Positions 3,616 through 63,800 of a stretch of 64,000 bases of DNA are shown piece after piece. Where the stretch lies: positions 187,133-251,132 of the IMG/VR virus record IMGVR_UViG_3300031417_000403, one strand, 5' to 3'. Positions within the stretch are counted from its first letter, which is position 1; each line of letters opens with the position of its first letter. Source of the stretch: a virus (taxonomy: Duplodnaviria; Heunggongvirae; Uroviricota; Caudoviricetes). The position numbers and the translations under genes were made by a program. A model generated the notes under the pieces. That model made no database searches and was not told the DNA's origin. It saw nothing but the letters and a program-made list of their open reading frames with translations.

Positions 3616-3616
3616 T

Positions 3617-4932: not shown

Positions 4933-5207
4933 TGAAGCTCTACATCGTCAACATCAAACGGCCGTGGAATCCGGTGGCCGTCCGCGATTACGAAATCAAG
5001 GTCTGCAAGAAGTCCGTGTGGGCTATTGCCAAGACCGGTCGTCGTTTTCTCCTGGGCGCCAGTGCTTTCCAAACTCTGGCGTCGGCTGAACGATGCCGTA
5101 CAGCGCTGCTCGAACAAATCCACAACAGCCAGTGGCAGAAGAACAACCGCCAATACGGATGGGCGGCAACTGATGCTGTGCTGCAACAAATGCAAACACT
5201 TCACTGA
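4932..5207 (+). CDS. hypothetical protein (91 aa)
   Basis: ATG overlapping upstream TGA. Confidence 0.45.
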   Translation: MKLYIVNIKRPWNPVAVRDYEIKVCKKSVWAIAKTGRRFLLGASAFQTLASAERCRTALLEQIHNSQWQKNNRQYGWAATDAVLQQMQTLH

Positions 5208-16616: not shown

Positions 16617-16747
16617 CCGAAGAAGACGATCTGATGGACCCAGATTATCTGGACCATCTGTACATGTGCTATCTCGAAGCCGGCGGAGAAGGTGAGCCAA
16701 TGAACTTCGACGAATGGCTGGAAGAACACAAAAGAGAGAACCAATGA
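16613..16747 (+). CDS. small acidic protein (44 aa)
   Basis: ATGA overlaps. Confidence 0.3.
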   Translation: MTEEDDLMDPDYLDHLYMCYLEAGGEGEPMNFDEWLEEHKRENQ

Positions 16748-21641: not shown

Positions 21642-21827
21642 GTGAAACTGTATGACTTCTCCGTTTACGCCGCCAGGCGAGACGCGATGCGAAAAGAGAA
21701 AGCTGCTGCCGCACGCGTTGTGGAGGTGATGGACCATATTGAAGAACCCGGTTCCATAAAGCAACTCAAGCATTGTGTCGATGATTGGTTCACTTTACAT
21801 AGGAACGTTATAGAACACCAAGCATAA
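21642..21827 (+). CDS. hypothetical protein (61 aa, GTG start)
   Basis: strong RBS aaggagggg before GTG. Confidence 0.45.
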   Translation: MKLYDFSVYAARRDAMRKEKAAAARVVEVMDHIEEPGSIKQLKHCVDDWFTLHRNVIEHQA

Positions 21828-22690
21828 TGAAACCAAAATATATCAGAGTCCTTTCGGACCTACACTTGGAACAACTACTCGGTCAACGAGAGGAATTCTT
21901 AGCTAACAGCTTTGTACCGCCCGATCCACGCGACTCGGAAAGCGTACTTGTTCTTGCTGGTGACATCAGCTCGAAACCCGCACAACTCATTCCTTTCCTG
22001 GGCTGGCTCAAAGACCGGTTCATGCGAGTCATCTACATTCCAGGCAACCACGAATACTACGGCCACGAGTTTGCTTCGTGGGAACGTGCTGTTACTGAAG
22101 CACTCAAAGAAGCACCCAATATCAAATTCTGTGGCAACGATGTTGCTGTCGAGGAATTTGAAGGCGTCCGCTTCATCTTCGGTACTCTGTGGGGCGATGG
22201 TGGATCGACGCTTGCTGAACACGCAGACATCGGCCGCTACTTGAACGACTTCCGTCTTGCACGTGTTGGCGACAAGAAATTCACTGTCGCCGATATGAAA
22301 ACGATGTATCGTTCGCAGAAGAGCAAGATCAAAGCATTGCTGGAAACTCCGTTCGACGGCAAGACCGTTGTCGCGACCCATCACATGCCATCGTACCAAC
22401 TTTGCCATCCACGTTTCGGTGGCGCAATCAACGGTGGCTTCGCTTCGCACAGCGATGATTTGATGGGCGGTGAACACGCACCAGCAGTTTGGATTCACGG
22501 CCACACTCACGATACGATCGACCGCATTCTGCATGGTTGCCGCGTCGTCTGCAATCCATCGGGCTATCGTCAAGAGTACGGCACCATCTTCAATCTGTTC
22601 GGGCCGAAGTTCATCACGATCGAAAACATGCAGTACGTTGAGCCAGTGAAACCGATGTGGCATGCAACCCCGGAGAAAGTCAGTGAATAA
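21827..22690 (+). CDS. calcineurin-like metallophosphoesterase
   Basis: motifs RVLSDLH, LAGD, GNHEYY, GHTH; 287 aa. Confidence 0.8.
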   Translation: MKPKYIRVLSDLHLEQLLGQREEFLANSFVPPDPRDSESVLVLAGDISSKPAQLIPFLGWLKDRFMRVIYIPGNHEYYGHEFASWERAVTEALKEAPNIKFCGNDVAVEEFEGVRFIFGTLWGDGGSTLAEHADIGRYLNDFRLARVGDKKFTVADMKTMYRSQKSKIKALLETPFDGKTVVATHHMPSYQLCHPRFGGAINGGFASHSDDLMGGEHAPAVWIHGHTHDTIDRILHGCRVVCNPSGYRQEYGTIFNLFGPKFITIENMQYVEPVKPMWHATPEKVSE

Positions 22691-23134: not shown

Positions 23135-23674
23135 ATGCTTTCCATGCTAATCTTCTATAAAGAACTAACGATAGAAGAAGGTTTCGAAGTCCTCGAGAAA
23201 ACAAAGTACGACCGTCTTGTTGGCGGCCGACAAGTATCTCAATGCTCGGGCTGGAATCTTTTTCAAACATACAAAGGCAAACCAATCACGTGTTGGAAGT
23301 GCGGATGCGCTGCCGACCGATGGATTGCTGATCGTGGGCCGAAGCACATGGGAAATCCAGTGCTCAATTTGTACGGCATGCGATACGGCGAGTTGGTGCT
23401 GATGAATCGTGACCACATCATTCCAAAATCTTTGGGCGGTGTTGATGTTAACGAAAATCTGCGGCCTGCATGCGAAGTTTGTAACGGCGGACGCGGCAAC
23501 ACGCTGACGCCAGAAGACTTGCAATTCCGAAAGGATCATCCCGAGTTGATCAGCGAGCATCGACTCGAAGAAGGAAAGAAGTCTGCGCGCAAAGCAATCA
23601 AAGCGCACGAAGGACATCCGGAAGAACAAGCACGAATTGCATTGCCATTCGAAATGATTGGCGAACCACTTTAA
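23135..23674 (+). CDS. HNH homing endonuclease
   Basis: CWKCGC...NRDHIIPKSLGG...NLRPACEVCN HNH/zinc-finger motifs; promoter-like tagaatgctttcc overlaps start. Confidence 0.75.
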   Translation: MLSMLIFYKELTIEEGFEVLEKTKYDRLVGGRQVSQCSGWNLFQTYKGKPITCWKCGCAADRWIADRGPKHMGNPVLNLYGMRYGELVLMNRDHIIPKSLGGVDVNENLRPACEVCNGGRGNTLTPEDLQFRKDHPELISEHRLEEGKKSARKAIKAHEGHPEEQARIALPFEMIGEPL

Positions 23675-23684
23675 AGGAAATACC

Positions 23685-25088
23685 ATGGGACAACCAACAC
23701 AAGAAATCGCACAAGGCGGCTGGAAAGCTGAAGCTCTGAAAGACGGCATTGTCGTTACCAACGAAGAAGAAATGCAGGCATATCTTGAAGCTGATGCAAC
23801 TGCAGCCGAACAAGCTGAAGTGCTGCGTCGCCAACAACTCGTCGACGAAGCTGTGGCAGACGGCCGCAAGCTGGTGACTGTTCGTCAAATCACTTCGATC
23901 GAAGATATTCCTGGCGCCGACCTGATCAAGAAAGCAATGGTCGAAGGCTGGCCAGTCGTCGTAAAAGCCGGCGAGTTCAAAGTTGGCGACCTGTGCGTCT
24001 TCTTCGAGGTCGACTCGTACCTGCCAATGTCGGACGAACGTTTCAAGTTCCTCGAAAAGAACGCCATCAACTGGAACGACATTCCAGGTGCACGACTGAA
24101 AACGATTCGCCTGCGCAAGCAGCTGTCGCAAGGCCTCGCACTTCCGCTCGATGCGTTCCCGGAAATCATCGATCATCTGATCGGCCTGGGAATCGGGAAA
24201 AGCGAAGTCGAAAAAATTCGCGACATCAACTTCACTGGCCTGCTCGGCATCATGAAGTGGGACAAGCCTGTCAACGCACAACTGGCTGGCATGGCGAAGG
24301 GTAACTTCCCAACGTTCCTCCGCAAGTCGGACCAAGAACGTTGCCAGAACATGGGCTCGCAAATCTTCGGCTACGATGAAACCTTCTCGCCGGTTCCGGC
24401 AGAAGCCGTCGCTGCAATGTCGCAAGAAGACAAGGACGCCGCAATCGCTGCTGGTCGTATGCGCATGACCGGCGATGTACTGCAGTTCGTCCGTCCGCCG
24501 CAAGCAAGCCGCGACACTCGTTACGAAGTCACGCTGAAAATGGACGGCAGTTCGATGACCGTGTATCGTTACGGTGCCGGCGGCGAACCGCTGGAAGGCG
24601 TGTGCTCGCGTAACCTCGATCTGAAGATGGAAGGCAACGACGACAACGCCTTCGTGCAGATGGCGAACAGCGGTATTCTGCAAGTGCTGCGAAGCGTCGG
24701 TCAAGACATCGCACTTCAAGGCGAGCTGATGGGTCCTGGTATCCAAGGCAACCGCGAAGGTTTCAAGACCAATCGCTTCTTCGTCTACAACATCTTCGAC
24801 ATCGACAAAGGCGAGTTCATGACTCCGCGCGAGCGCAAGTCGCTGGTGGCAAAGATGAACAGCATTGCCCGCGTCGAGAACATCAACGTCGTGATCGAGC
24901 ATGTTCCGACCCTGCACTTTGGCGTCACGCTCGAAGAACTGGGCATCAAGAACATGGACGAACTGCTGCAGTTCGCCATTGGCCCAAGCATGAACAACAA
25001 CGTGCGTGAAGGCCTGGTGTTCAAAGCAATGGACGGTTCGCACCAGTTCAAGGCCATCAGCAACCTGTACCTCGAACAAGAAAAATGA
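23685..25088 (+). CDS. ATP-dependent RNA ligase (Rnl-type nucleotidyltransferase with N-terminal extension)
   Basis: motif I TLKMDGSS (KxDG), IV EGLVFK, V FKAISNLY; RBS aaaggaaatacc; 467 aa. Confidence 0.7.
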   Translation: MGQPTQEIAQGGWKAEALKDGIVVTNEEEMQAYLEADATAAEQAEVLRRQQLVDEAVADGRKLVTVRQITSIEDIPGADLIKKAMVEGWPVVVKAGEFKVGDLCVFFEVDSYLPMSDERFKFLEKNAINWNDIPGARLKTIRLRKQLSQGLALPLDAFPEIIDHLIGLGIGKSEVEKIRDINFTGLLGIMKWDKPVNAQLAGMAKGNFPTFLRKSDQERCQNMGSQIFGYDETFSPVPAEAVAAMSQEDKDAAIAAGRMRMTGDVLQFVRPPQASRDTRYEVTLKMDGSSMTVYRYGAGGEPLEGVCSRNLDLKMEGNDDNAFVQMANSGILQVLRSVGQDIALQGELMGPGIQGNREGFKTNRFFVYNIFDIDKGEFMTPRERKSLVAKMNSIARVENINVVIEHVPTLHFGVTLEELGIKNMDELLQFAIGPSMNNNVREGLVFKAMDGSHQFKAISNLYLEQEK

Positions 25089-30547: not shown

Positions 30548-32200
30548 ATGAAACTCAAACCTTTGCCAAAAGCAATTCTGGTCGCAGTCGTTCTCGCTGG
30601 TGTCGGCTTCGGCGTTCACACCGCGATGAATAAAGGCTACTTCAAGTCGCGCGCTACGATCGAAGCATCCGTGCCGGACAAGATCGACCTCCCAACTGCA
30701 GCTGCAAACCAGACCGCGTCGACCGGCACCATCACCACTGCAGCAGTGAACTCGCACGAAACCATCCGCGTCAAGACCCTCGCATGGAACGCGACGGCCG
30801 GCATGCACTACGCCAACGGCGACGCCGACACGACCTCCGATTCGCTGATGGCGAAGCGTGGCCTGAAGGTCAACATCCGTCGCGAAGACGACTACAGCAA
30901 GATGATCGCCGATCTGGCATCGTTCGCCAAAGACAACTCGACCGGCGTGCACTTCGTCGTCATCATGGGCGACGGCTATCCGGCATTCGTCAAGGGCGCC
31001 AACGACGCACTGAAGCCGTTCGACCAATCCGTCGAAGTGGTGGGCGCACTGGGCTACAGCCGCGGCGAAGACAAGTGCATCATCGACAAGAATGCACGTC
31101 CGCAGGGTTCGCTGATTGCTGGCGTGCTCGGCGATGGCGACATCAACATCTGCATCAAGTATGCGGCCGACAACGGCATCAAGGTCAACTCCGATCCGAA
31201 GACCTACGATCCGGAAGCGATGAACTTCGTGGGCGTTTCGTCCTTCACCGACGGCGACGAGAAGTTCATCGCTGGCGCAAGCGACCGCGGCCATCCGATC
31301 AACGGTACCGCAACCTGGACCCCGGGCGATGTCAAAGTTGCAACGAAGCGCGGCAACATCAAGGTGCTGGCGTCGACGAAAGAATACGCATGGCAGATGC
31401 CGGCCGTCGTGATCGGCAATAAGAAGTGGATGGCTGCACACCCGAACGAGGTGAAGGCTTTCCTGGCGGCAGCATTCGAAGGCGGTGAAGCAGTTCGCAG
31501 CAGCGATCAAGCACTGCTGAAAGCCGGCGCGGTCGAAGCCAAGGTGTATGGCGAAGGCGATGCGAACTACTGGGCCAAGTACTTCAAGGGCACGACTGAA
31601 AACGGCGTATCGCTCGGCGGCTCGACCACGAACGGACTCGCAGACAATGCGTTCTTGTTCGGCCTGAAAGGCGCCGACAACCTGTACAAGAAAGTGTACA
31701 ACGTGTACGGCAACATCGCGGTCAAGTACTTCCCGGACAACCTGCCGAAGCTGATTCCGTACGATCAAGTTGTGAACACCTCGTATCTCGAGGGCCTGCT
31801 GCAGAACTCGAACGTGAGCGTCGAATCGGCTGCTACGCCGACGTACGGTGGCCAGAAGTCCGAGGTCGTCGGTAACAAGTCGTACAGCATCGAGTTCGAC
31901 ACCGGCAAGACGACCTTCAAGCCGGCATCGATCGCTGTGCTGAACGAGCTGCTGGACCAGATCGCTGTCTCGGGCCTGTCGGTGCAAATCAACGGTCACA
32001 CCGACAGCAAGGGTAATCCGGAAGCAAACCTGGCCCTGTCGAAGAAGCGTGCTGAAGCAGTGGCGAACTTCCTCCGCGCGAATGCGCCGAGCAACTTCCC
32101 GGCCGAGCGTATCTCGACCCGCGGCTTCGGCGACACGCAGCCGATCGGTTCGGATGCTCAGAACCGCCGCGTGGAAATTGTGTTGTACTCCACGAAGTAA
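30548..32200 (+). CDS. membrane-anchored periplasmic solute-binding-like domain fused to C-terminal OmpA-like peptidoglycan-binding domain
   Basis: N-terminus paralogous to the 36706 gene; C-terminus NGHTDSKGNPEANLALSKKRAEAV (OmpA_C motif); 550 aa. Confidence 0.6.
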   Translation: MKLKPLPKAILVAVVLAGVGFGVHTAMNKGYFKSRATIEASVPDKIDLPTAAANQTASTGTITTAAVNSHETIRVKTLAWNATAGMHYANGDADTTSDSLMAKRGLKVNIRREDDYSKMIADLASFAKDNSTGVHFVVIMGDGYPAFVKGANDALKPFDQSVEVVGALGYSRGEDKCIIDKNARPQGSLIAGVLGDGDINICIKYAADNGIKVNSDPKTYDPEAMNFVGVSSFTDGDEKFIAGASDRGHPINGTATWTPGDVKVATKRGNIKVLASTKEYAWQMPAVVIGNKKWMAAHPNEVKAFLAAAFEGGEAVRSSDQALLKAGAVEAKVYGEGDANYWAKYFKGTTENGVSLGGSTTNGLADNAFLFGLKGADNLYKKVYNVYGNIAVKYFPDNLPKLIPYDQVVNTSYLEGLLQNSNVSVESAATPTYGGQKSEVVGNKSYSIEFDTGKTTFKPASIAVLNELLDQIAVSGLSVQINGHTDSKGNPEANLALSKKRAEAVANFLRANAPSNFPAERISTRGFGDTQPIGSDAQNRRVEIVLYSTK

Positions 32201-32256
32201 GCTGATGTACAATAGGGAGACCTCCGGGTTTCCCTAATTTTCTTTCAGGACTCAAC

Positions 32257-32448
32257 ATGCTTATCATTCTCGGCTACATCGTTCTCGGCATCGTCATCTA
32301 CAACGTTCCGTCGATGATCGCTCTGCTTCGACTCCACAACAACGGCCATCGCATCGTCATGATGAACATGGTACTCGGTTGGACCATCGTCGGCTGGTTC
32401 ACTGCACTGTTCTGGTCGCTACAATCTCCGACGGCTGACTACAAATGA
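32257..32448 (+). CDS. imm: superinfection immunity (Imm-family) membrane protein
   Basis: NMVLGWTIVGWFTALFWSL matches Imm_superinfect family core; 63 aa, 2 TM. Confidence 0.55.
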   Translation: MLIILGYIVLGIVIYNVPSMIALLRLHNNGHRIVMMNMVLGWTIVGWFTALFWSLQSPTADYK

Positions 32449-32585
32449 ACCAAGCGTTCTACGAGCATGCGAAGAAAATCATAGAGAATCTGACTGTTGA
32501 AGAGCTCTATGAAGCACTCACAAAAGCCGGCATCGACGTGACGGTTCGACAATATCCAGAACCCGAGAAAAAGGACGAAGAATGA
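32445..32585 (+). CDS. small hypothetical protein (46 aa)
   Basis: ATGA overlap. Confidence 0.3.
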   Translation: MNQAFYEHAKKIIENLTVEELYEALTKAGIDVTVRQYPEPEKKDEE

Positions 32586-32824
32586 AAGCAAGTCTGATAG
32601 TATTAGCTTTGATCGCTGCAAGTCTTTCGGCCTGCATGCGTAAGGAAAGGCCGGAACCGCAGCCGACCAATGCTGCCAACGTGAAGATCGTAAGCGTAGA
32701 ACCGGGTAACTATAATGTTTACCAACACTGCATCAAGGGCGTCGCTTACCTCACGTATTCGAAAACCATCATCGTTCAAGTGACCGAAGATGGTAAACCT
32801 CAGACATGTGTGGTGTCGCCATGA
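32582..32824 (+). CDS. small lipoprotein (80 aa)
   Basis: lipobox LSAC. Confidence 0.5.
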   Translation: MKASLIVLALIAASLSACMRKERPEPQPTNAANVKIVSVEPGNYNVYQHCIKGVAYLTYSKTIIVQVTEDGKPQTCVVSP

Positions 32825-33027
32825 CCAAAACCAAACGTAAGACCAAGCAAGACAAGCTGGACCAAGAAGCTCGTACCAGAATCATTGCATCGCTAAATAA
32901 TTTCTTCTCCGACTTGAACGAAATCAGTAATGACACTGGTTACGACATTCCGGACTTGCACTACAACAGCTTGTCGGTTCTGCATCGTGAACTGTGCGAG
33001 CAGAGGGAGAAACATGATGCTGCATAA
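32821..33027 (+). CDS. hypothetical protein (68 aa)
   Basis: ATG overlapping upstream TGA. Confidence 0.4.
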   Translation: MTKTKRKTKQDKLDQEARTRIIASLNNFFSDLNEISNDTGYDIPDLHYNSLSVLHRELCEQREKHDAA

Positions 33028-33235
33028 ACTTTCCGACTGGTACGACAGCCTGCACGAGCCATACCGCTTCTTCACGTTCATCTACTTTGTGTTCGGTGCA
33101 TTCTTCCCGTTCGCAATGGCGATGTTCACGTTCGACGCCAAGATTATCTTCTGGCCGTACGTGTTCGCGACGTTGGGCATGCTGCATCTCGCGTTCTTCT
33201 ACTCATTTGCCATCTACCGGGCAACTCGAAAGTAA
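33014..33235 (+). CDS. small membrane protein (73 aa)
   Basis: two hydrophobic helices. Confidence 0.45.
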   Translation: MMLHKLSDWYDSLHEPYRFFTFIYFVFGAFFPFAMAMFTFDAKIIFWPYVFATLGMLHLAFFYSFAIYRATRK

Positions 33236-33237
33236 AA

Positions 33238-34026
33238 ATGTTCAACTCACTGTTTACACCTTTTTATGCTGGGCGCAAGTTCAGCATCAAGTTTCTTGCA
33301 GCCTTTCAACTCGTGGTTCTCGCGGTTGTATGGGTTCTGTTGCCGGCAAGCAGTGGTATTCCGTCGCCATCGGCAATCGCCTCCGCGTGGAACGACCTTG
33401 CACTGAAGCAAGGTCTTCTGCTGGAACTCTTTAAGTCCGTAGCCGTGATCTGGGAAGCGCTCATCCTGTCAGCGTTAATTTCCTTCGGCGCTGCCTACCT
33501 CACAACTGCGGACTTCTTTAAACCTGGAGCAACGTTCATCGCGTCGCTCCGATTCCTCGGCTTCGCCGGTCTGACGTTCCTCTTCACACTGTGGGTTGGC
33601 GGAAATGGTTCGCACCTGAAACTGGCCATGTTGACGTTCGGCATGACTGTGTTCTTGATGCGGTCGACCGTGGACGAAATCAAAGCGATTCCATTGGAGT
33701 CCATCGACTACGCTCGATCGCTGGGCATGAACGGATGGCACATCACATATGAAATCGGTGTGTTGGGTCGACTGCATGTGATGCTGGACCTGCTCCGCCA
33801 AAATGCGGCAATCGGCTGGACGCTGATCGTGATGGTTGAATCGTACGTCCGCAGCGATGGTGGTATCGGTGCTCTGCTGGCGGTGCAAGCAAAGTACTTC
33901 AACCTGCCGGCCGTGTTCGCGATTCAACTGACGATTCTCGCGTATGGTATCATTCAAGATATGTTGCTTGATCTGCTGCGCGCCACCGTCTGCCCTTACA
34001 CCAATCTAAACCGGAGTGATCGATAA
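33238..34026 (+). CDS. ABC transporter permease (binding-protein-dependent, SsuC/TauC/NrtB-like)
   Basis: 6 TM pattern with EAA-like loop ESIDYARSLGMNGWHITYEIGVLGRLHVML. Confidence 0.75.
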   Translation: MFNSLFTPFYAGRKFSIKFLAAFQLVVLAVVWVLLPASSGIPSPSAIASAWNDLALKQGLLLELFKSVAVIWEALILSALISFGAAYLTTADFFKPGATFIASLRFLGFAGLTFLFTLWVGGNGSHLKLAMLTFGMTVFLMRSTVDEIKAIPLESIDYARSLGMNGWHITYEIGVLGRLHVMLDLLRQNAAIGWTLIVMVESYVRSDGGIGALLAVQAKYFNLPAVFAIQLTILAYGIIQDMLLDLLRATVCPYTNLNRSDR

Positions 34027-34427
34027 TGGATCGCAAAATTGCACTGAAGTGGGCACGTGCCCTTGAAAGCGGCGAGTATGGCCAAACAACCGGCGCACTG
34101 CGTGAAGGCAACAAGTTCTGTTGTCTTGGTGTCCTCTGCAATCTGCATGCTCAAGCACATCCAGAAATTGCAAAGGACGAAACTGACCCAGAGAAATACA
34201 TGGGCAAAGAAGGCGAGCTGCCGGAACAAGTGATGCACTGGGCCGGCATGCGATCCGATAATGGAAAAATCGGTGATGGCGTGAGACTCAAAGTCCGCGA
34301 CAAGAAGAGCCACAGTCAAGACGAGATGACAGAATACATTCGCGATCTGATCGATCTGAATGACCATTACGAATTCGACTTCCCAAAGATCGCGAAAGTA
34401 ATTCGCGAACATTCCGACAAACTGTGA
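34026..34427 (+). CDS. hypothetical protein (133 aa)
   Basis: ORF track. Confidence 0.5.
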   Translation: MDRKIALKWARALESGEYGQTTGALREGNKFCCLGVLCNLHAQAHPEIAKDETDPEKYMGKEGELPEQVMHWAGMRSDNGKIGDGVRLKVRDKKSHSQDEMTEYIRDLIDLNDHYEFDFPKIAKVIREHSDKL

Positions 34428-34450
34428 TGTGCAAGAAATAGGTTACGAAG

Positions 34451-34456
34451 TATAAT
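34451..34456 (+). promoter_or_regulatory. promoter -10 TATAAT
   Basis: gtataatggcttcgtaacc. Confidence 0.45.
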
Positions 34457-34497
34457 GGCTTCGTAACCTAACTGCACAGGAGATTAAAGGCTAACCA

Positions 34498-34791
34498 ATG
34501 TCATTTCCAATTCGCCCACTGGGCCCAAAAGACGTCGTGAAGAGCGGCATTCCCGAATTTGTCATCGAAGCGGTCAACGAACTCATCAGTGAGAAGTACA
34601 ACGATAGTTCGTTCGTCATTCGTCAGAACGAAGTGAAGGATCGCATCATGTCGAAGACCACACAGGACTTCGACTGGGAATGGCTCAACTTCGAAAAAAT
34701 TTACCGCGACGCAGGGTGGTACGTCGAATACGACAAACCCGCTTACTGCGAAAGCTACGAAGCATTTTTCAAATTTACTCCGAAAAGATAA
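34498..34791 (+). CDS. hypothetical protein (97 aa)
   Basis: ATG after gtataatggcttcgtaacc...ggagattaaaggctaacc. Confidence 0.5.
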   Translation: MSFPIRPLGPKDVVKSGIPEFVIEAVNELISEKYNDSSFVIRQNEVKDRIMSKTTQDFDWEWLNFEKIYRDAGWYVEYDKPAYCESYEAFFKFTPKR

Positions 34792-34794
34792 AAC

Positions 34795-35649
34795 ATGAGT
34801 TCGAATACCGCTAAAAGCCCCAACGTCCTGCTGTATGGTATTGCAGGTCTCGTCATCATCGCCATCGCCACGTTCTTCCTCGTGTGGCTGTTGGCCATGC
34901 GAACCGAGACCGTGGAACCCGGCCACGAGCTGGTCATCATCGACAAGCCGTACTTCTTCGGCTCCAGCGGTGTACGCGATGAAACCCTGAAGCAAGGTCG
35001 TATTCTGCTGTTCCGAACGTCGGACGTCGAGCCGGTACGAATGACACCGCAATCATACAACGTCAAGTTCGACGACCTGTCGTCGGCAGACAACATCTTG
35101 CTGGACTTCGAATCCACGATCCAGTTCAAGATTACCGACGCGAAAGTGCTGGTGAGCAAGTTCGGATCGAAGGATTGGTTCGTCAACAACTTGCAACGCC
35201 AATACATGTCGATCGTGCGCGAGGCTGTCAAGAAGGAAACCATGACGGACATGATGTCCAATGCTGAAACGTCGACACGTGTTGACACCTACGTTACCGA
35301 TGCGCTGCAAAAGCTCGTGGCGGAAAGCAAGTTGCCAATCGCGATTCTCGGCGTTACGCTGGGTCGTGCGAAGCCGAACGACAACGTCTTGCTGCAGATG
35401 AACGAGACCGCTGCTCAACAGCAACGTAACAAGACGTTGATCGCCGCGACCGCTGCAGAAGAACAACGTGCGAAAGAGCAGACCGCAAAGGCCGCAGCTG
35501 ACAACGCGTACCGTAACGCGCTGGGCATGAACAGCGAGCAGTTCATCCAACTCGAAGCCATCAAGCGTTACTCCGAAGCCTGTGCCAAGTCGGAACGCTG
35601 CATCGTGACTCCGGGCATGGGCACCAACGTGCTGGTAACTGGAAAGTAA
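34795..35649 (+). CDS. SPFH/band-7 (stomatin/HflK-like) membrane protein
   Basis: N-terminal TM, SPFH core, Ala/Gln/Glu-rich coiled-coil tail. Confidence 0.65.
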   Translation: MSSNTAKSPNVLLYGIAGLVIIAIATFFLVWLLAMRTETVEPGHELVIIDKPYFFGSSGVRDETLKQGRILLFRTSDVEPVRMTPQSYNVKFDDLSSADNILLDFESTIQFKITDAKVLVSKFGSKDWFVNNLQRQYMSIVREAVKKETMTDMMSNAETSTRVDTYVTDALQKLVAESKLPIAILGVTLGRAKPNDNVLLQMNETAAQQQRNKTLIAATAAEEQRAKEQTAKAAADNAYRNALGMNSEQFIQLEAIKRYSEACAKSERCIVTPGMGTNVLVTGK

Positions 35650-35650
35650 A

Positions 35651-36448
35651 ATGGAATACAAACTCGAAGAACGCATGCTGACCATCACTGGTCTTGGCTT
35701 GTCGTACGGTAACAAAGTCATCTTGCGCGACATCAACCTCGTGATCGACAACGTGGTACGACCGGGGCTGAATCAAGGCCAGTGCGTCGCGCTGCTCGGA
35801 CCGTCCGGCTGTGGCAAGACGCAGCTGTTCCGATGCATCGCCGGTCTGCAACGACCGACGCTCGGCACGATCGAGTTTGGCGAAATCGAAGAAGGAAAAA
35901 TCGGCAAAGCGCCGGAGCCCGGAAGTGTTGGTGTTGTGCAGCAAGCATATCCGCTGTTGCAACACCGCACCATCATGGGCAACCTAACGCTCGTCTGCAA
36001 AGACAAGAAGAGGGTTGTCGAGATGCTGACTCGTTTCGGCCTGCAAGATCATGGCGACAAGTATCCAGTGCAGTTGTCTGGTGGTCAACGTCAACGCGTT
36101 GCCATCATTCAACAGATGCTGATTTCCGACCGTCACTTCTTGTTGATGGACGAACCGTTCTCCGGTCTCGACATCATCGCAAAAGACAAGGTGTGCGATC
36201 TGATCAACGAAGTGAATCTCGTTGATGAACTGAACACGACCATCTTCACTACACACGATCTAGAATCCGCGATTCAAATCGCCGACACGATCTGGGTGAT
36301 GGGTCGTGAAGAAGGAAAACCCGGCGCGACGATCGTCAAGATATACGATCTGAAAGCCATGGGCCTTGCGTGGCAGCCCAACGTGACGAAGCATCCAATG
36401 TTCGTGCCACTGCTGAACGAGCTGCACGATTTGTTTCATACTCTGTAA
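35651..36448 (+). CDS. ABC transporter ATP-binding protein
   Basis: Walker A GPSGCGKT, signature LSGGQRQRVAI, Walker B LLMDEPFSGLD. Confidence 0.85.
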   Translation: MEYKLEERMLTITGLGLSYGNKVILRDINLVIDNVVRPGLNQGQCVALLGPSGCGKTQLFRCIAGLQRPTLGTIEFGEIEEGKIGKAPEPGSVGVVQQAYPLLQHRTIMGNLTLVCKDKKRVVEMLTRFGLQDHGDKYPVQLSGGQRQRVAIIQQMLISDRHFLLMDEPFSGLDIIAKDKVCDLINEVNLVDELNTTIFTTHDLESAIQIADTIWVMGREEGKPGATIVKIYDLKAMGLAWQPNVTKHPMFVPLLNELHDLFHTL

Positions 36449-36478
36449 TCTGCTGTGTACAAATCCGGTACCACAGGC

Positions 36479-36484
36479 TATAAT
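36479..36484 (+). promoter_or_regulatory. promoter -10 TATAAT
   Basis: ggctataatagcttcacataaccaaacggagtttgaATG. Confidence 0.5.
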
Positions 36485-36511
36485 AGCTTCACATAACCAA
36501 ACGGAGTTTGA

Positions 36512-36694
36512 ATGAACACGAAAAGTCAGAACATCGAAAATCAGATCGATGACGCGCTCGAAGCAGGCGATGCCAATAAGCTGGACTTGGCGTTGCGTGC
36601 ACAGTATCACTTCCAGTGCCGCGGCATGTCGGTAAGTACCGAAGGCCACGAGTACGATTTGGTCAAGACCATTGACCCGAACTTCTACGGATAA
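36512..36694 (+). CDS. small hypothetical protein (60 aa)
   Basis: ATG after ggctataatagcttcacataaccaaacggagtttga. Confidence 0.4.
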   Translation: MNTKSQNIENQIDDALEAGDANKLDLALRAQYHFQCRGMSVSTEGHEYDLVKTIDPNFYG

Positions 36695-36705
36695 GGACCA
36701 ACATC

Positions 36706-37815
36706 ATGGCAAAGCTCAAAGCTCTCCCAAAAGCACTGATCGTCGCAGCAATCGTCGGCGCCGCCGGTTTCGGCGCGTACAAGTTCATGCCGAAGCATGA
36801 CAAGACCGAAGTGGCCGAAACGAAAGACGCCGAAGTCGCGGCAGCACCGGAAGTTCAACGTGGCGATCCCGTCGCACCGCGTGAAGAACTGCCGACGCGT
36901 GAACCCGCAAGCGTGAACGCGGTACCATCCGAATCCTCGCTCGAAGTCGCAAACGGCCAGAAACTTCCTGGCGCCGGCATCGCGTCCGGCCAGAAGACCG
37001 GCACCAACTATCCGATGGTCGAAGACATCATCAAGGTCTGCTCGACGCCGGATTACCCGCTGCGCAACGTCATCACCAACGGTTCCGTCGACAACATCAA
37101 CAAGATTTACACCGACAAGAACTCGCAGTTCGGCATCATTCAAGAAGATGCGCTGGACTACCAACGCAAGATCGATCCGAAGATGATGTCGCGCGTCGTC
37201 GCAGTCTTCCCGTTCTTCTCGGTCGAAGTCCACGCCATCGCCAAGAACGGCGCACCGATCAACTCGCTGGCTGACATGGCCGGCAAGCGCGTAGTGGAAG
37301 GTCCGGAAGGTTCCGGCACGTGGGTTACCGTGCAGCTCATCAAGCAGATGACCGGCATCAAGTGGAACACTGTGTCCGGCAACCTGTCGCAGAAAGACGG
37401 TCTCGCTGCAGTGCAACGTGGCGACGCCGACGTCGAGTTCATCGTGGCCGGTCAACCGATCACGGTGCTGACGACCGCCAAAGGCATCAAGCTGGTGCCG
37501 CTGAGCAATCCGACGCTCGACAAGTACGGGTACTACACGAAGACGTCGCTGGCATCGCACACGTACGGCTTCCAAGGCGACGCTGTGCCGACGTACAAGG
37601 TCAACAACGTGCTGGCCACGTTCGCGTACAAGAACCAGTACCAGAAGGAAATCGGTACGCTCGTCAGCTGCATCACGAAAAACGTGGACAACCTGCAAGC
37701 TGATGGTCATCCGAAATGGCGTGACGTCGATCCGCTCGACATCGAACGGGTGAACTGGCCTGTGCATCCGGCCGCACTGGCCGCAATCAAACGTGAAGCG
37801 AAAGGTCGTAAATAA
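36706..37815 (+). CDS. membrane-anchored periplasmic solute-binding protein (TAXI/NMT1-like fold)
   Basis: N-terminal anchor paralogous to the 30548 gene; GQKTGTNYPM resembles TAXI GxTGG-YYP motif. Confidence 0.6.
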   Translation: MAKLKALPKALIVAAIVGAAGFGAYKFMPKHDKTEVAETKDAEVAAAPEVQRGDPVAPREELPTREPASVNAVPSESSLEVANGQKLPGAGIASGQKTGTNYPMVEDIIKVCSTPDYPLRNVITNGSVDNINKIYTDKNSQFGIIQEDALDYQRKIDPKMMSRVVAVFPFFSVEVHAIAKNGAPINSLADMAGKRVVEGPEGSGTWVTVQLIKQMTGIKWNTVSGNLSQKDGLAAVQRGDADVEFIVAGQPITVLTTAKGIKLVPLSNPTLDKYGYYTKTSLASHTYGFQGDAVPTYKVNNVLATFAYKNQYQKEIGTLVSCITKNVDNLQADGHPKWRDVDPLDIERVNWPVHPAALAAIKREAKGRK

Positions 37816-38315
37816 TGTCCGACGAACGAATCATCTTCGTCATCCACACCAACGCGTACGCTGGCAATTTCGAGCGTGAGCTGTGCGCGTACATCACCGG
37901 CCAAGTCGGTGATTGCGGTGTGGGTGAAGACCTGGCAAGCGACTTCCTCGACGAAGTCGGCGATGAACAAGCTGATCTGTTCGCAGACATCATCGGCGTC
38001 GCGCCCGATGATGGGCGCTGCGACAGGCCGTGCAAAATCTACCCGACGCCCGGTCGTCTCAACAACGGCATGGGCACGCACTTCGACGCGGCTGAAGATC
38101 AAAAGGGTTTTCCGGCTTACGAGTCGGTCGCGATCTACTTCGACGAGATGCCGTCCGACGAGCAGTTCGATCTGATGAAGGATCGCACGATGCAGTACGC
38201 GAAGTCGGTGTACAATCGCAAGTCGTACTACAAAGACCGCGAACCGCTCGTCATCAAAGGTTTCGAACTGATCGTCGAAACCACGGAAGTCAAGCAACTC
38301 CGCAAAGCCATGTAA
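37815..38315 (+). CDS. hypothetical acidic protein (166 aa)
   Basis: ORF track. Confidence 0.5.
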   Translation: MSDERIIFVIHTNAYAGNFERELCAYITGQVGDCGVGEDLASDFLDEVGDEQADLFADIIGVAPDDGRCDRPCKIYPTPGRLNNGMGTHFDAAEDQKGFPAYESVAIYFDEMPSDEQFDLMKDRTMQYAKSVYNRKSYYKDREPLVIKGFELIVETTEVKQLRKAM

Positions 38316-38333
38316 CACGAAAGGAAGTCATCC

Positions 38334-39149
38334 ATGAAGAAGCTGTTTGTTACTCTGTTGTGGATGATTTCAGCGACGTGTTCTGCCGCGAAGTTCAACT
38401 CACAGTCAGTGTTCGTTATTGAAGACGGTGGTCAAGTGTTGTTCGAAAAACAACCTGACCTCGTCAGCCCAATCGCGTCACTGACAAAACTCATGACTGC
38501 AATGGTAGTGCTGGACGCACATCAGAACATGCAGGAAATAATTACGATTCAACAGTCTGATGTCGATGAAATCAAGCACAGCATGTCACGTGTTCGTGTT
38601 GGTTGGCAGATGACACGAGCAGAGGCGTTGGAACTCGCGCTGATGCACTCCGACAACAGAGCTGCAACTGCACTGGGCAGAACGTATCCAAGCGGACTAC
38701 CAGCATTCCAAGAAGCAATGCGAGCGAAAATCGCAGCATTGGGACTTCGCGGAACATCGATTGTAGAACCATCCGGACTCTCGCCAAGCAATGTATCCAC
38801 CGCACGTGATCTTGCCATCATCGCAATAGCGGCATCAGCATATCCAGACATCACCCGCATCACCACGACCGAATTGGTTCAAATCCACGGTACAAATTTC
38901 AAGAACACCAACAGATTAGTTGGCGCAAACGGCTGGGACATTCGTCTGTCAAAGACTGGTTACATCGAAGAATCAGGTCGATGCTTTGTCATGAGAATCG
39001 TCGCTGCTGGTAAAACTGCAACCATCGTCTTGCTCAATGCTGGATCGAGTTCAGCTCGCATGCAAGATGCGTGGACAATCCGTCGCGCAATCACTGGCGA
39101 ACCCTCACCGAAGCCGCAGAAGCACAAGAAGAAAAAGCGTCGCAAATAG
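38334..39149 (+). CDS. D-alanyl-D-alanine carboxypeptidase/endopeptidase (low-MW PBP, S11 family), secreted
   Basis: signal peptide; SxxK SLTK, SxN HSDN, KTG LSKTG motifs; TAG stop. Confidence 0.75.
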   Translation: MKKLFVTLLWMISATCSAAKFNSQSVFVIEDGGQVLFEKQPDLVSPIASLTKLMTAMVVLDAHQNMQEIITIQQSDVDEIKHSMSRVRVGWQMTRAEALELALMHSDNRAATALGRTYPSGLPAFQEAMRAKIAALGLRGTSIVEPSGLSPSNVSTARDLAIIAIAASAYPDITRITTTELVQIHGTNFKNTNRLVGANGWDIRLSKTGYIEESGRCFVMRIVAAGKTATIVLLNAGSSSARMQDAWTIRRAITGEPSPKPQKHKKKKRRK

Positions 39150-49362: not shown

Positions 49363-49438
49363 GCCTCGTTAGCTCAACTGGCAGAGTGGCGGTCTCTAAA
49401 ACCGAGGGTTGCGGGTTCGATCCCCGCACGGGGCACCA
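49363..49438 (+). tRNA. amber suppressor tRNA, anticodon CUA (tRNA-Trp-like anticodon arm), CCA encoded
   Basis: cloverleaf: acceptor gcctcgt/acggggc, anticodon arm gcggt CTCTAAA accga, T-arm gcggg ttcgatc cccgc. Confidence 0.7.
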
Positions 49439-49892: not shown

Positions 49893-49925
49893 CGCGGCCT
49901 GGACCTCGCAAGAGGTTCCACATAA

Positions 49926-50042
49926 CTGGATTAGCTCAGTGGGAGAGCGGCGTGCAGCGGCACGTGATACCGAAACCGATACAGCATTCTCGTGTGAATG
50001 TTCCCTACGGTTAGCGTCATTGGTTCGAATCCAATATCCAGT
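49926..50042 (+). tRNA. tRNA-like gene (117 nt) with ~40-nt insertion between D-arm and T-arm; anticodon undetermined
   Basis: acceptor actggat/atccagt, D-arm gctcagtgggagagc, T-arm attgg ttcgaat ccaat; internal hairpin cgtgc agcg gcacg. Confidence 0.35.
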
Positions 50043-50238
50043 TATGTGACGAATGCGTAAGCTAATACGCGAAACTTGTGGTTGTGATACAGACCGGAGA
50101 AGCGGTTCATAAGGGTGGACGCATACAACTCTTCCTTGGCGTCCGAAGCTGCCTCATGAAAGTGAGATGCGGGATTCCTGATAAAGTATCACATGCCGGG
50201 ATTAGCTCCGGCCGTCACTGAACTTAACGGAGGATGAC

Positions 50239-58575: not shown

Positions 58576-58658
58576 GCGCCAGTAGATAATGTGAATTGGT
58601 ACAACTGACTCGTTTAGAGCGAGTAACCTTGTGGGTTCGAGTCCCACCTGGCGCACCA
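58576..58658 (+). tRNA. tRNA with anticodon TAG, enlarged D region and short variable arm (non-canonical for Leu)
   Basis: acceptor gcgccag/ctggcgc, anticodon arm actcg tttagag cgagt, T-arm gtggg ttcgagt cccac. Confidence 0.5.
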
Positions 58659-58670
58659 AACAAAAGTGAT

Positions 58671-59126
58671 ATGAAGAATATAACCGATGAAATGCTGACT
58701 GAAGCAGTAGCAGCGAGCACGACGTTCCGCGAAGTGCTTCGCAAGCTCGGCATCAAAGAAGCAGGCGGATCGCACGGCCACTATACGCGTCGTGCTAAAA
58801 ACCTCGGTCTCGACATGAGTCACATGCTCGGTAAGTCTTCATCATCTGGTAAGATTAGCCACAAACGAAAATATGCTGCAGACATTCTTGTGAAGCGAGA
58901 AAGCGGCGGTCGAGCAAAAGCAGAACAGCTTGTCAGAAGTTTGTTGGAAATTGGTAGGAAACATGAGTGTGAGAAATGCGGACAACTGCCTGAATGGCAC
59001 GGTCATCCACTGACGCTTGACGTCGATCACATCAATGAAGATTGGCTGGACGATCGTGCTGAGAACTTGCGGTTCTTGTGCCCGAACTGCCATAGTCAGT
59101 TAAGCAGACGTTTGATTCAAAAATAA
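58671..59126 (+). CDS. HNH homing endonuclease
   Basis: LDVDHINEDWLDDRAENLRFLCPNCH. Confidence 0.7.
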   Translation: MKNITDEMLTEAVAASTTFREVLRKLGIKEAGGSHGHYTRRAKNLGLDMSHMLGKSSSSGKISHKRKYAADILVKRESGGRAKAEQLVRSLLEIGRKHECEKCGQLPEWHGHPLTLDVDHINEDWLDDRAENLRFLCPNCHSQLSRRLIQK

Positions 59127-60355: not shown

Positions 60356-60862
60356 TTGAGGAGCGTCTATCAAATGGCAAGAAATAAAATTGAAGTAACG
60401 AAAGAACAAATTGAATGGGCTTTAACGCAAAGTAATTCTGCGAAAGCTGCTTCAGATGTGATAGGATTATCCTTTATGACGTTCAAGCGACGTTGTAAAG
60501 AGTTTGGCTTGTACGCACCGAATCAAGGTTTGAAAGGTACGAAGAAGCCAAATCCAAAGTGGGAGATTCCACTTGAAAAGATTTTCAGCAACGAACACTT
60601 CATGACTGGCGCTGCCATCAAGAAGAAAATGTTGAAAGCAGGATTATGGACCGACGAGTGTTCCGAATGCAAACAGCCGCCCATGTGGAACGGCAAGAAG
60701 CTAGTTTTGCAGGTAGATCATATCGACGGTGATAAAACGAACAACGCGCAATCCAACCTCAGATTGCTATGTCCAAACTGCCATACGCAGACACATACCT
60801 TTTCGAAGGGCAAGTTCAGAACCAAAGCGGTTGTGGCGGAACTGGTAGACGCGTTAGGTTGA
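60356..60862 (+). CDS. HNH homing endonuclease (3' end overlaps tRNA-Leu)
   Basis: LQVDHIDGDKTNNAQSNLRLLCPNCH. Confidence 0.7.
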   Translation: MRSVYQMARNKIEVTKEQIEWALTQSNSAKAASDVIGLSFMTFKRRCKEFGLYAPNQGLKGTKKPNPKWEIPLEKIFSNEHFMTGAAIKKKMLKAGLWTDECSECKQPPMWNGKKLVLQVDHIDGDKTNNAQSNLRLLCPNCHTQTHTFSKGKFRTKAVVAELVDALG

Positions 60863-61501: not shown

Positions 61502-61638
61502 GTAGAGGTAGCTCAGTCTGGCAGAGCGACCGCCTCGTCGAAAGACACCTGTTTGCGCAACTTGTTGACAAACGTCAACCGAATGTGAATAGTTATCCAA
61601 GCAGTATGTCGTAGGTTCGAATCCTACCCTCTACACCA
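61502..61638 (+). tRNA. long tRNA-like gene C (137 nt) with variant insertion (AATAGTTATCCAAGCAGTATG)
   Basis: acceptor gtagagg/cctctac, D-arm gctc agtctggc agagc, T-arm gtagg ttcgaat cctac, CCA; internal hairpin gttgac aaac gtcaac. Confidence 0.45.
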
Positions 61639-62096: not shown

Positions 62097-62171
62097 CCCG
62101 AGGTAGCTCAGCGGTAGAGCAGGCTCCGTTATGGGAGCTGTGCGCTGGTTCGAATCCAGCCCTTAGGCCCA
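62097..62171 (+). tRNA. atypical tRNA (C3-A70 mismatch; 6- or 8-nt anticodon loop gttatg; TAT/Ile candidate)
   Basis: acceptor cccgagg/ccttagg, stem gctcc/ggagc enclosing gttatg, T-arm gctgg ttcgaat ccagc. Confidence 0.4.
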
Positions 62172-62639: not shown

Positions 62640-62815
62640 AGTTAAGAAGAGGCGTCGTGGAAAGCAAGGTCTCAGGCATGGGATTCGGACACGATTGACG
62701 GATGGACTGTTCCCGGTGCACCGGCGCATTAAACAGATGATGGCGTAGCGACCATCCCTTTTCTTGCAAGTTCAAATGACAGCATAAATAGTCTACACAA
62801 AATGTGAGGACGTGT

Positions 62816-62821
62816 TATAAT
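62816..62821 (+). promoter_or_regulatory. promoter TATAAT-GCTTTC subclass upstream of toxin-antitoxin pair
   Basis: tgttataatgctttcattg. Confidence 0.5.
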
Positions 62822-62850: not shown

Positions 62851-63030
62851 ATGGCTAACAAAACTACTCTGATCGCTGAAGTCGCACTGCGCGAAGCTAT
62901 CGAAGCAGATGACAGTGGCCTGGACAAAGAAGTGCTTTTCGAAGCTGTGCAAGTCAAAGAAGAAGACTTGTCGGCGCCGGTTGATGGTGCGACTCTTCTG
63001 ATGCAGTTGGCGCAGGAAGGTCTTCTGTGA
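62851..63030 (+). CDS. small acidic protein, putative antitoxin
   Basis: ATG after gttataatgctttcattgacagacaacgaggtacacc; overlaps toxin start (GTGA). Confidence 0.45.
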   Translation: MANKTTLIAEVALREAIEADDSGLDKEVLFEAVQVKEEDLSAPVDGATLLMQLAQEGLL

Positions 63031-63371
63031 AAGTAGAATTTCGACGTAGTCAGCTGTTCAATCAGACGCTGGCGAAGCACAAAGGTATCGCAAATAAACT
63101 TGCTGAATTCATTCAGTTCAAGACGAACGATCCTATGGCAAGATTTGGAAAGAAGGACCAGCACTTTGCTGGTGGCGACTTGGGCGAGACTGGGTTAATC
63201 CATGCTCACTTGACGAACGACATCAGCGTATTGTATCGCCGATCAGGACGAGACCCAACGTACATCGACCTGATAGCATTGCTGACGCATGATGATTTGG
63301 GAACGGGTAATCCGCCGAATCAGAAGCAGCAACGCAAGATGGCGAAAGTGTTGAGCAATGAAAAGGTTTAA
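63027..63371 (+). CDS. RelE/ParE-superfamily toxin (YafQ-like)
   Basis: GLIHAHLTNDISVLYRRSGRDPTYIDLIALLTHDDL resembles YafQ C-terminal catalytic region. Confidence 0.5.
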   Translation: MKVEFRRSQLFNQTLAKHKGIANKLAEFIQFKTNDPMARFGKKDQHFAGGDLGETGLIHAHLTNDISVLYRRSGRDPTYIDLIALLTHDDLGTGNPPNQKQQRKMAKVLSNEKV

Positions 63372-63379
63372 AGATCAAT

Positions 63380-63453
63380 CGCGGGGTAGTGTAAGTGGTG
63401 GCACATCGGGCTCATAATCCGAAAGACTGGTTCGATTCCAGCGACCGCAACCA
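63380..63453 (+). tRNA. initiator tRNA-fMet (anticodon CAT)
   Basis: cgcgggg...gaccgca-A-CCA with C1-A72 mismatch; anticodon arm tcggg ctcataa tccga. Confidence 0.65.
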
Positions 63454-63456
63454 AAT

Positions 63457-63623
63457 TTGTTGTTAGTGTAGTGGCCCATCACGCTCTAGCAGGGTAGGTA
63501 GACTGTTCAATTCAGCTCACGGTTAATGATCCCATCGGGTCGCATGCAACCCACACTCGATCAACCGGCATGGTGACCGTAAATCCGCATAGAGAAACGC
63601 TGGTTCGAATCCAGCACGACAAA
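63457..63623 (+). tRNA. long tRNA-like gene D (167 nt): ~100-nt insertion within anticodon-stem region, no CCA
   Basis: acceptor ttgttgt/acgacaa, D-arm gtg tagtggcccat cac, T-arm gctgg ttcgaat ccagc; long-range pairing ctcta (63486) with tagag (63598). Confidence 0.4.
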
Positions 63624-63633
63624 TGAAGAACAT

Positions 63634-63723
63634 GGAGAATTAACTATTCAGGGAATAGGACCGCCTGCTAAGCGGATCGCCTGGCTTCGGTCGGGTACGG
63701 TTCGAGTCCGTAGTTCTCCGCCA
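63634..63723 (+). tRNA. tRNA-Ser (anticodon GCT)
   Basis: class II, G73; loop ctgctaa. Confidence 0.75.
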
Positions 63724-63800
63724 AGTTGTAGCAAATGTTGTGGCCTGTCAGGTAAGCCCCTCACGATACTGTTAAATGCGTGGAAGCTGGCAACGAATTT

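Follow-up and report, generated by a model that had tools for sequence, protein, structure and literature searches.

The closest described counterpart of the element treated here is an RNA of phage T5. GenBank record AY543070.1 carries at 32959-33083 a misc_RNA of 125 nt named rna2, with the remark "tRNA-like stable RNA with unknown functions", and lists rna1, rna2H, rna3, rnaIV, and rnaI besides. The stretch of DNA analysed here, which we call the window, comprises 64,000 nt (positions 187,133 to 251,132) of IMG/VR virus record IMGVR_UViG_3300031417_000403, from a jumbo phage whose source contig, ENA ERZ27247433 k141_1209711, has 375,421 bp. At 63457-63623 on the plus strand it has a tRNA-like element of 167 nt, in which a long insert separates the two strands of an anticodon-like stem. 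Comparison across phages indicates that this locus is probably the jumbo-phage orthologue of T5 gene rna2, encoding a tRNA-like stable non-coding RNA, and not a gene for a tRNA with an intron. RNA2 is not among the families of Rfam, as judged by scans of the window, of minimal relatives, and of T5 rna2, and our literature searches found no description of RNA2 structure, distribution, or function.

A first-pass annotation, made by reading the letters of the window, had recognized the acceptor, D arm, and canonical T arm, the CTCTA/TAGAG pairing around an insert of about 100 nt, and the lack of an open reading frame (ORF) or an encoded CCA, and had found the insert consistent with an intron in the anticodon region, removal of which would give a spliced species of about 75 nt. 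The descriptive part holds on re-reading. The insert lies exactly between the two stem strands and is 101 nt long (63489-63589), it has no usable ORF in any frame, and the element is followed by ATGAAG, unlike the neighboring tRNAs, which mostly encode CCA. The element sits in a dense array with 26-29 tRNA calls in the window, 26 of them by ARAGORN and on the plus strand. It is 7 nt downstream of a tRNA(CAU) at 63381-63449, called by Rfam only (36.2 bits) and with an irregular acceptor stem, and 10 nt upstream of a tRNA-Ser(GCT). Default ARAGORN and an Rfam scan at gathering thresholds make no call at the element, nor does a permissive Rfam scan (E ≤ 10) of 63300-63800 find anything there. The intron mode of ARAGORN does call the element, as tRNA-Arg(CCG) with a 94-nt intron at 33/34. 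In structure prediction, the folding energy is no better than that of shuffled sequence, with z-scores that are not significant. The structural support for the element is covariation, not energy.

No deposited phage is closely related to the window, and relatives of the locus were located by using as an anchor the 114-amino-acid ORF directly upstream (63027-63371). Syntenic copies of the element are present in the jumbo-phage relatives L002/L016, L009, and L010/L011. [quoted passage not shown] Relatives L001 and L021 have an ORF where the element would be, and no element was found in the 48 kb tested of RsoM2USA, a cultured Ralstonia jumbo phage. Among 6 homologous loci, the anticodon-like stem appears as CTCTA/TAGAG, CCCCA/TGGGG, CCTCT/AGAGG, and TCGCT/AGCGA, and changes on both sides are found in 5/5 anticodon-stem pairs, 4/7 acceptor pairs, 2 D-stem pairs, and 2 T-stem pairs. 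In the same loci, 95.6% of the frame paired cells can pair, versus 29-44% when the 3' partners are slid. Comparison of the orthologous loci thus shows a real, selected tRNA-like gene, with its acceptor, D, anticodon-like, and T stems all covarying.

In place of an anticodon loop, a conserved domain of about 55 nt continues the anticodon-like stem. Another hairpin of T-arm type, the second in the element, extends from the junction of this domain, which also holds a strand with the invariant AUGG. Alignment A2, made of 12 representatives and used for the pair counts in this domain, has a collinear core that the window copy fits: stem, J, GGGY, N, G-N, T-like hairpin, AUGG strand, N-C, GUAA, RUCC, GCA, stem, short variable loop, T arm. 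The helix formed by GGGY and RUCC, which we call P2, has as its last pair U-A in 8 members and C-G in 2, and among T5-like phages this pair flips repeatedly between the two. The second pair of the short helix P2' is G-C in 5, A-U in 4, and U-A in 3. The 7-nt loop of the internal hairpin is U-U-C-R-A-K-U, which fits the T-loop rule U-U-C-R-A-N-N. The T-loops of tRNAs vary at R57 and 59, and since the internal loop varies at just those places, it is a T-arm by tRNA rules. In the domain as a whole, 95.3% of paired cells can pair, versus 76% in shuffled and 18-51% in slid controls. The single-stranded elements that do not change are AUGG, GUAA (AUAA in one member), and UCC. In tRNA terms, the would-be anticodon loop AUCCGCA is made of the ATCC at 63583-63586 and the GCA of the 3' junction, so P2 base-pairs the nucleotides of would-be anticodon-loop positions 32-35. 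RNAfold offered an alternative helix, ACUGU/AUGGU, in place of the T-like hairpin; it was not adopted, since the T-like stem shows covariation and AUGG never changes.

Membership in a wider family was assessed by similarity searches and by a covariance model. The 65-nt minimal insert of L002 matches 207 GenBank phage records with about 80% identity over 83-91% of its length at a relaxed E-value, and the version from Salmonella phage S113 matches 427. The S113-version matches are mostly in T5-like Demerecviridae, and they also include the T4-like Acinetobacter phages 133 and Acj9 and the 62.6-kb Acinetobacter phage AB1I1T. In nearly all of the matched records, the site is unannotated or lies under a "hypothetical protein". 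The exception that names it is the one T5 record AY543070.1, where the rna2 annotation covers the entire tRNA-like frame plus the insert. Model R1 was then built from 6 T5-like and Acinetobacter members only, with four helices specified. It finds L002 at 72.4 bits (E = 2 × 10−14), L015 at 64.7 bits (E = 1 × 10−12), the held-out phiR2-01 at 46.8 bits (E = 1.6 × 10−8), L009 at 37.8 bits (E = 1.9 × 10−6), the window element (63483-63615) at 32.6 bits (E = 3 × 10−5), and L010 at 31.4 bits (E = 5.5 × 10−5). The element is the top match in the window, where ordinary tRNAs score at most 19.2 bits, and its score is lower than that of L002 because of a 48-nt extra hairpin. We are therefore highly confident that the window element belongs to the T5 RNA2 family. 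Pattern scans of IMG/VR and of one-genome-per-species bacterial and archaeal collections, filtered with our covariance model, found the family in phage contigs only: T5-like contigs, L034 (164 kb), and L070, which had been binned as "bacterium" and has 167 kb. Of the 10 matches in the genome collections, 9 were chance. Most members lie in tRNA clusters, while L034 has no other tRNA within 10 kb of its element.

The extra hairpin differs in size among the members. It has 48 nt in the window and in L010 and about 23 nt in L009, and is absent in L002 and L015, as it is from the T5-like and Acinetobacter phages, which have a GAAA(G) or GCAU linker in its place. The parts of the element are collected in Table 1.

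Table 1. Parts of the RNA2-type element in the window, in 5' to 3' order
Feature	Position	Strand	Remarks
Acceptor stem, 5' strand TTGTTGT	63457-63463	+	Pairs with 63616-63622, one G-U; 4/7 pairs covary across homologues
D arm GTGT-AGTGGCCCA-TCAC	63466-63482	+	Loop with G18G19-like GG; 2/4 stem pairs covary
Anticodon-like stem, 5' strand CTCTA	63484-63488	+	5/5 pairs with 63590-63594 change on both sides
5' junction strand GCA	63489-63491	+	Variable in the family: GCA, GCAU, GCUA, ACGA, GCGA, CCGA, CCU
Helix P2, 5' strand GGGT	63492-63495	+	Pairs with ATCC 63583-63586; last pair covaries
Two-pair helix P2', 5' strand GG	63497-63498	+	Pairs with CC 63577-63578; second pair covaries
Internal second T-arm-like hairpin GACTG-TTCAATT-CAGCT	63501-63517	+	4/5 stem pairs covary; closing G-C invariant
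Extra hairpin, 48 nt, lineage-specific	63520-63567	+	Alignments A1 and A2
Conserved single strand GCATGGTGA	63568-63576	+	AUGG invariant in 12/12 representatives
CC (P2' 3' strand), GTAA (internal-loop strand), ATCC (P2 3' strand)	63577-63586	+	
3' junction strand GCA	63587-63589	+	Invariant except in Acj9 and AB1I1T (AUA)
Anticodon-like stem, 3' strand TAGAG	63590-63594	+	Pairs with CTCTA; covariation
Variable loop AAAC and canonical T arm GCTGG-TTCGAAT-CCAGC	63595-63615	+	T arm is 63599-63615; stem covaries, loop is the tRNA consensus
Acceptor stem, 3' strand ACGACAA, and discriminator A63623	63616-63623	+	Pairs with TTGTTGT 63457-63463

Insert and frame differ in conservation. Identity in the jumbo group is 90% in the insert core versus 64% in the frame, and over the 12 representatives it is 75% versus 37%. 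The flanks of the insert are nearly invariant in the jumbo group, reading (A)GGGTWGG..ACTGTTCRATTCAG on one side and GCATGGTGACCGTAAWTCCGCA on the other, while the frame changes in a compensatory way; the element is therefore selected, and is neither a pseudogene nor a fast-drifting intron. A tRNA gene turned into a pseudogene by a mobile or junk insertion would account for the standard tRNA finders skipping the element, for the missing CCA that its neighbors have, and for HNH homing endonuclease genes being in the same array. It would not account for compensatory changes keeping every frame helix after the insertion, nor for an insert conserved over T5-like, T4-like, and jumbo phages with covariation of its own, nor are there target-site duplications or terminal inverted repeats at the insert borders. 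With frame and insert both covarying and R1 detecting the element, this explanation is effectively refuted, and we give it almost no weight. Degradation in relatives had been named as a refuting outcome, and the homologous loci show the reverse, with compensatory changes maintaining the frame helices.

An intron-containing tRNA-Arg(CCG) is the reading toward which the first-pass annotation leaned. The insert, taken as 94-101 nt, would be removed between positions 31 and 32 to leave a 73-nt tRNA reading CGG, either by host or phage nucleases and then the phage RNA ligase, or by self-catalysis. ARAGORN in intron mode reports tRNA-Arg(CCG) not only in the window but in L002 and L010, minimal versions reach 44.8 and 38.2 bits with the Rfam tRNA model, which takes 55-57 nt of them as an insertion in the anticodon loop, and there is no other tRNA-Arg in the approximately 25 kb of array examined. 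Several further points weigh against an RNA that stays whole. The excised form folds as a clean cloverleaf, and UCCGCA at the 3' junction hardly varies, much as one would expect of an anticodon loop. Among the genes of the window are those for an RNA ligase (23658-25085) and a phosphoesterase (21827-22687), which could rejoin an anticodon loop after cleavage. The jumbo phages and L034 keep the whole tRNA frame, under clear selection, and from the intact frame together with the cloverleaf on excision it follows that these lineages could still use the element as a tRNA. The stability of the full-length product, for its part, is drawn from the GenBank note on T5.

The evidence on the other side makes splicing improbable in our judgment. 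T5 rna2 is annotated as a 125-nt stable RNA with the insert inside it, and the insert outdoes the would-be exons in conservation in the identities given above and has its own covarying helices, the reverse of what a protein-spliced intron would show. The loop left by excision, WUCCGCA, has C, a pyrimidine, at position 37, and A, U, or G at position 32. The D loop is without the conserved A20, and no CCA is encoded. In Acj9 and AB1I1T, CCAUA replaces CCGCA and the excision loop becomes RUCCAUA. Acinetobacter phage Acj133, Acj9, AB1I1T, and L070 have no normal acceptor stem or D arm: in Acj133, the T arm of the element is followed after 4 nt by the next tRNA, and the 5' part is a 13-16-nt segment (ACCWWGGWGGAAG) without a D arm, with a similar arrangement in the other three. 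Without acceptor stem and D arm, the Acinetobacter members cannot be tRNA precursors. The intron mode of ARAGORN leaves the T5-like and Acinetobacter versions uncalled, and the Rfam tRNA model leaves T5 rna2 uncalled. A precise 5' splice site is undefined by the sequence, because the 5' junction varies in length and sequence. As to the repair enzymes, modules of the T4 Pnkp/Rnl1 type are common anti-anticodon-nuclease equipment in large phages, and for that reason the ligase and phosphoesterase of the window are not specific evidence of splicing. The RNA quite probably accumulates unspliced, a conclusion that rests on database annotation.

No signature of a group I intron, a bulge-helix-bulge intron, or a ribozyme is present at the element. 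That the insert is not a group I intron, which had been argued from its size, is borne out: there is no group I core and no Rfam intron match at E ≤ 10, and the minimal insert is 48-55 nt as compared with about 200 nt or more. The borders do not fit either, with A or U before the insert and A as its last base, without the U(-1)/G(omega) arrangement. For an archaeal or eukaryotic bulge-helix-bulge intron, a 4-bp helix GGGU/AUCC is present, with the wrong bulge layout. Outside P2 both strands are unpaired (3-4 nt of the 5' junction on one strand and GCA on the other), and inside there is unpaired GUAA on the 3' strand. The two unpaired strands that flank the helix are thus both on the 3' side, in contrast to a 3-4-3 arrangement with 3-nt bulges on opposite strands.

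One could also think of a new small self-cleaving or self-splicing ribozyme embedded in the tRNA frame. A compact, strongly conserved core of about 55 nt with a variable peripheral hairpin is a pattern typical of small ribozymes, and the domain is located where cleavage would split or release the tRNA halves. The known classes, however, give no match: cmscan with Rfam 15 at E ≤ 10, run on 200-500-nt stretches of three versions, returned tRNA and noise only, with nothing for hammerhead, hepatitis delta virus (HDV)-like/theta, twister, twister-sister, pistol, hatchet, or hairpin. Mapping the core by hand onto a hammerhead, HDV-like, or bulge-helix-bulge topology failed, and for T5 it is the full-length RNA that is on record as stable. 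We regard a ribozyme as very unlikely.

A compromise is conceivable for the phages with an intact frame, the jumbo phages and L034. There the RNA2 domain would be a conditionally removed intervening element that locks tRNA-Arg(CCG) until it is cut out and the ends are resealed. The anticodon, locked by pairing in P2, would then be hidden from anticodon nucleases, and the phage RNA ligase and phosphoesterase could do the resealing. A switchable, nuclease-proof tRNA of this kind would be a new class of bacterial-virus tRNA intron, although we think such a lock has little chance of being the right description.

Returning to RNA2 as an RNA that is not spliced, its life can be sketched as follows. 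It would be transcribed together with the tRNAs of the array, and transcription may start at a promoter-like site (62792-62821) that follows a terminator-like hairpin at 62739-62756. The element is probably co-transcribed with the 59- and 114-amino-acid ORFs, the tRNA(CAU), and the downstream tRNAs. Enzymes of tRNA processing would cut the RNA out by way of its tRNA-like frame or of the flanking tRNAs, and it would accumulate as such. The internal T-loop may dock on the AUGG strand as the T-loop of a tRNA docks on G18-G19 of the D-loop, with AUGG as its putative D-loop-like partner. Docking would give the molecule a second elbow at its anticodon end. The resulting non-decoding tRNA mimic might occupy or divert a factor that recognizes tRNA, for example a host nuclease directed at tRNAs or an enzyme that processes or modifies them. 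The idea of a decoy comes from four features taken together: the RNA is tRNA-shaped, it would have the second elbow at the anticodon end, it is confined to phages, and phage tRNA clusters counter tRNA-targeting defences (PMC11464382; bioRxiv 10.1101/2023.03.15.532788). We offer the decoy function as a tentative proposal that is more apt to be wrong than right.

Certain points count against this functional sketch as well. The putative contact between T-loop and AUGG comprises invariant bases only, and we know of no binding partner for RNA2. A search for a conserved protein neighbor found none: the 114-amino-acid ORF has no Pfam match and is not homologous to T5.067, which lies upstream of T5 rna2. 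T5 variants with deletions in the tRNA region are viable, among them T5Mos, which lacks 30661-38625, a region that covers rna2 (PMC11464382), so any function of RNA2 must be conditional.

Two of the Acinetobacter versions differ at the junction in a way that deserves a remark of its own. In Acj9 (L030, approximately 580-690) and AB1I1T (L032, approximately 795-900), P2 opens with an A-C pair, and the junction that follows it has AUA where the other members have GCA. The CCAU so formed could pair with the invariant AUGG in a perfect 4-bp helix (AUGG/CCAU) that would compete with P2, which hints at two mutually exclusive conformations in these two phages.

A possible short relative turned up in a D-arm pattern search for an uninterrupted orthologue. 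L023 (IMGVR_UViG_3300029288_000008, 85.5 kb; reverse complement, 7586-7663) has a tRNA-like gene between tRNA-Met(CAU) and tRNA-Ser(CGA), a Met-X-Ser setting like that of the element. It shares its D arm and AAAC variable loop with the RNA2-type genes of jumbo phages, and its anticodon loop has 12 nt, TGACCGGTTAAA. The loop resembles the invariant TGACCG-T-AAA of the insert, and this is either a short relative or a coincidence. Homology is unproven, because an ordinary tRNA-Val (L024) has this D arm too, and model R1 gives no match to L023 at E ≤ 1.

Other genes of the window and of T5 have features in common with the element. The first-pass annotation had also listed other interrupted tRNA-like genes, of which the one it placed at 49926-50042 corresponds to a tRNA-like gene at 49924-50044 on the plus strand; another gene, at 61502-61638, had been overlooked. 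The former has 121 nt, an ACTGGAT/ATCCAGT acceptor, normal D and T arms, and a disordered anticodon/variable region. In intron mode, ARAGORN reads it as Arg(GCG) whose variable arm is long and whose intron has 27 nt, and its GenBank phage matches are only at the T-arm end. The gene at 61502-61638, also on the plus strand, has a GTAGAGG/CCTCTAC acceptor, intact D and T arms, and an encoded CCA, with about 60-66 nt inserted in the anticodon loop, including a hairpin GTTGAC-AAAC-GTCAAC. It scores 50.2 bits with the Rfam tRNA model and is called Gly(CCC) with a 60-nt intron by ARAGORN in intron mode. Its insert has nothing in common with the RNA2 domain and no GenBank phage match. Two unusual tRNAs are in the same array on the plus strand, one of amber-suppressor type at 49363-49438 (anticodon CUA, labeled "Pyl" by ARAGORN), and one at 62097-62171 with a 6-nt anticodon loop (ARAGORN "???", anticodon "ta"; Rfam 42.2 bits). 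On the T5 side, stable or tRNA-like RNAs from the same cluster as rna2 are rna3 (1586-1658), rnaIV (2595-2697), rna2H (3556-3727), and rna1 (4891-5034), in coordinates of L031, our T5 stretch of AY543070.1. Only tRNA-type Rfam models cover any of these, and comparison of rna1, rna2H, rna3, and rnaIV with the other interrupted tRNA-like genes of the window gave T-arm matches only.

Upstream of the element and behind the promoter-like site, the overlapping ORFs of 59 and 114 amino acids (62851-63030 and 63027-63371, plus strand) are kept as a pair in relatives, including RsoM2USA (40% identity), and have a toxin-antitoxin-like layout with no Pfam match for either. Two HNH homing-endonuclease genes (58596-59126 and 60356-60862, plus strand) lie between tRNA genes, as in the tRNA clusters of T5 and T4, and may explain the horizontal spread of array segments including the RNA2-type gene. 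A cluster of genes farther upstream on the plus strand comprises a weak match to an RlaP-like nucleotidyltransferase (16714-17751) and genes for an ATP-dependent DNA ligase (19507-20853), the calcineurin-like phosphoesterase, and the RNA ligase, the last consisting of PF09414 plus the PHA02142 oligonucleotide/oligosaccharide-binding (OB) domain. This nucleic-acid repair cluster is probably equipment for tRNA and RNA repair.

T5 RNA2 is an orphan RNA of a tractable model phage that has been on record for decades. These comparisons make it a widespread and structurally distinctive RNA that goes without annotation in nearly every one of the more than 400 genomes carrying it. It is common to three very different groups, namely T5-like siphophages, T4-like Acinetobacter phages, and phages of 160-375 kb. 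What looked like an insertion is a conserved functional core with a second T-loop hairpin, and in some lineages the surrounding tRNA frame can be dispensed with. Annotators may note that tRNA finders in intron mode will label such loci tRNA-Arg(CCG). The subject is timely, as phage tRNA clusters are now recognized as counter-measures to bacterial defences that target tRNA.

Of the known systems to which the element can be compared, intron-containing tRNA genes of the group I and bulge-helix-bulge kinds likewise have the anticodon region interrupted, and in the element bases on the anticodon side pair with the insert, like an anticodon-intron helix. The differences are that the 55-101-nt insert is far below group I size, that it is more conserved than its frame, and that the homologous RNA is reported stable at full length. 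YrlA, one of the bacterial Y RNA-like RNAs, does not decode; it is a larger RNA in which acceptor, D, and T elements like those of tRNA form a module, and some YrlA RNAs occur in phages. In the element, by contrast, an extra domain with a second T-loop hairpin replaces the anticodon loop, YrlA has no Rfam match to it at E ≤ 10, and no Rsr/Ro gene was noticed near it. T4 rnaC and rnaD (species 1 and 2; NC_000866) are, like the element, small stable RNAs of unassigned function inside a phage tRNA cluster, and rnaC has a canonical T arm as the element does. Neither has a collinear likeness to the RNA2 core, so that they are analogous and not demonstrably homologous; R1 gives rnaC 14 bits with E = 0.54, at the T arm only, and blastn-short recovers the T-arm consensus only.

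In T5 rna2, the order of parts is that of the window copy, with acceptor, D arm, anticodon-like stem, GGGY, T-like hairpin (loop UUCGAUU), (G)AAUGG, GUAA, RUCC, GCA, stem, short variable loop, and T arm, and both lack CCA and sit in a phage tRNA cluster. T5 has GAAAG where the window copy has the 48-nt extra hairpin, and the AUGG-type strand is GCAUGGUGACC in the window versus GAAUGGUUCUC in T5. The window frame is the more tRNA-like of the two, with U8-A9 and a 4-bp D stem, where T5 has CG at positions 8-9 and a D stem of 5 bp. Jumbo and T5-like members are about 27% identical in the frame and about 72% in the core. The window copy is a divergent new member of RNA2, a kind of RNA already known from T5.

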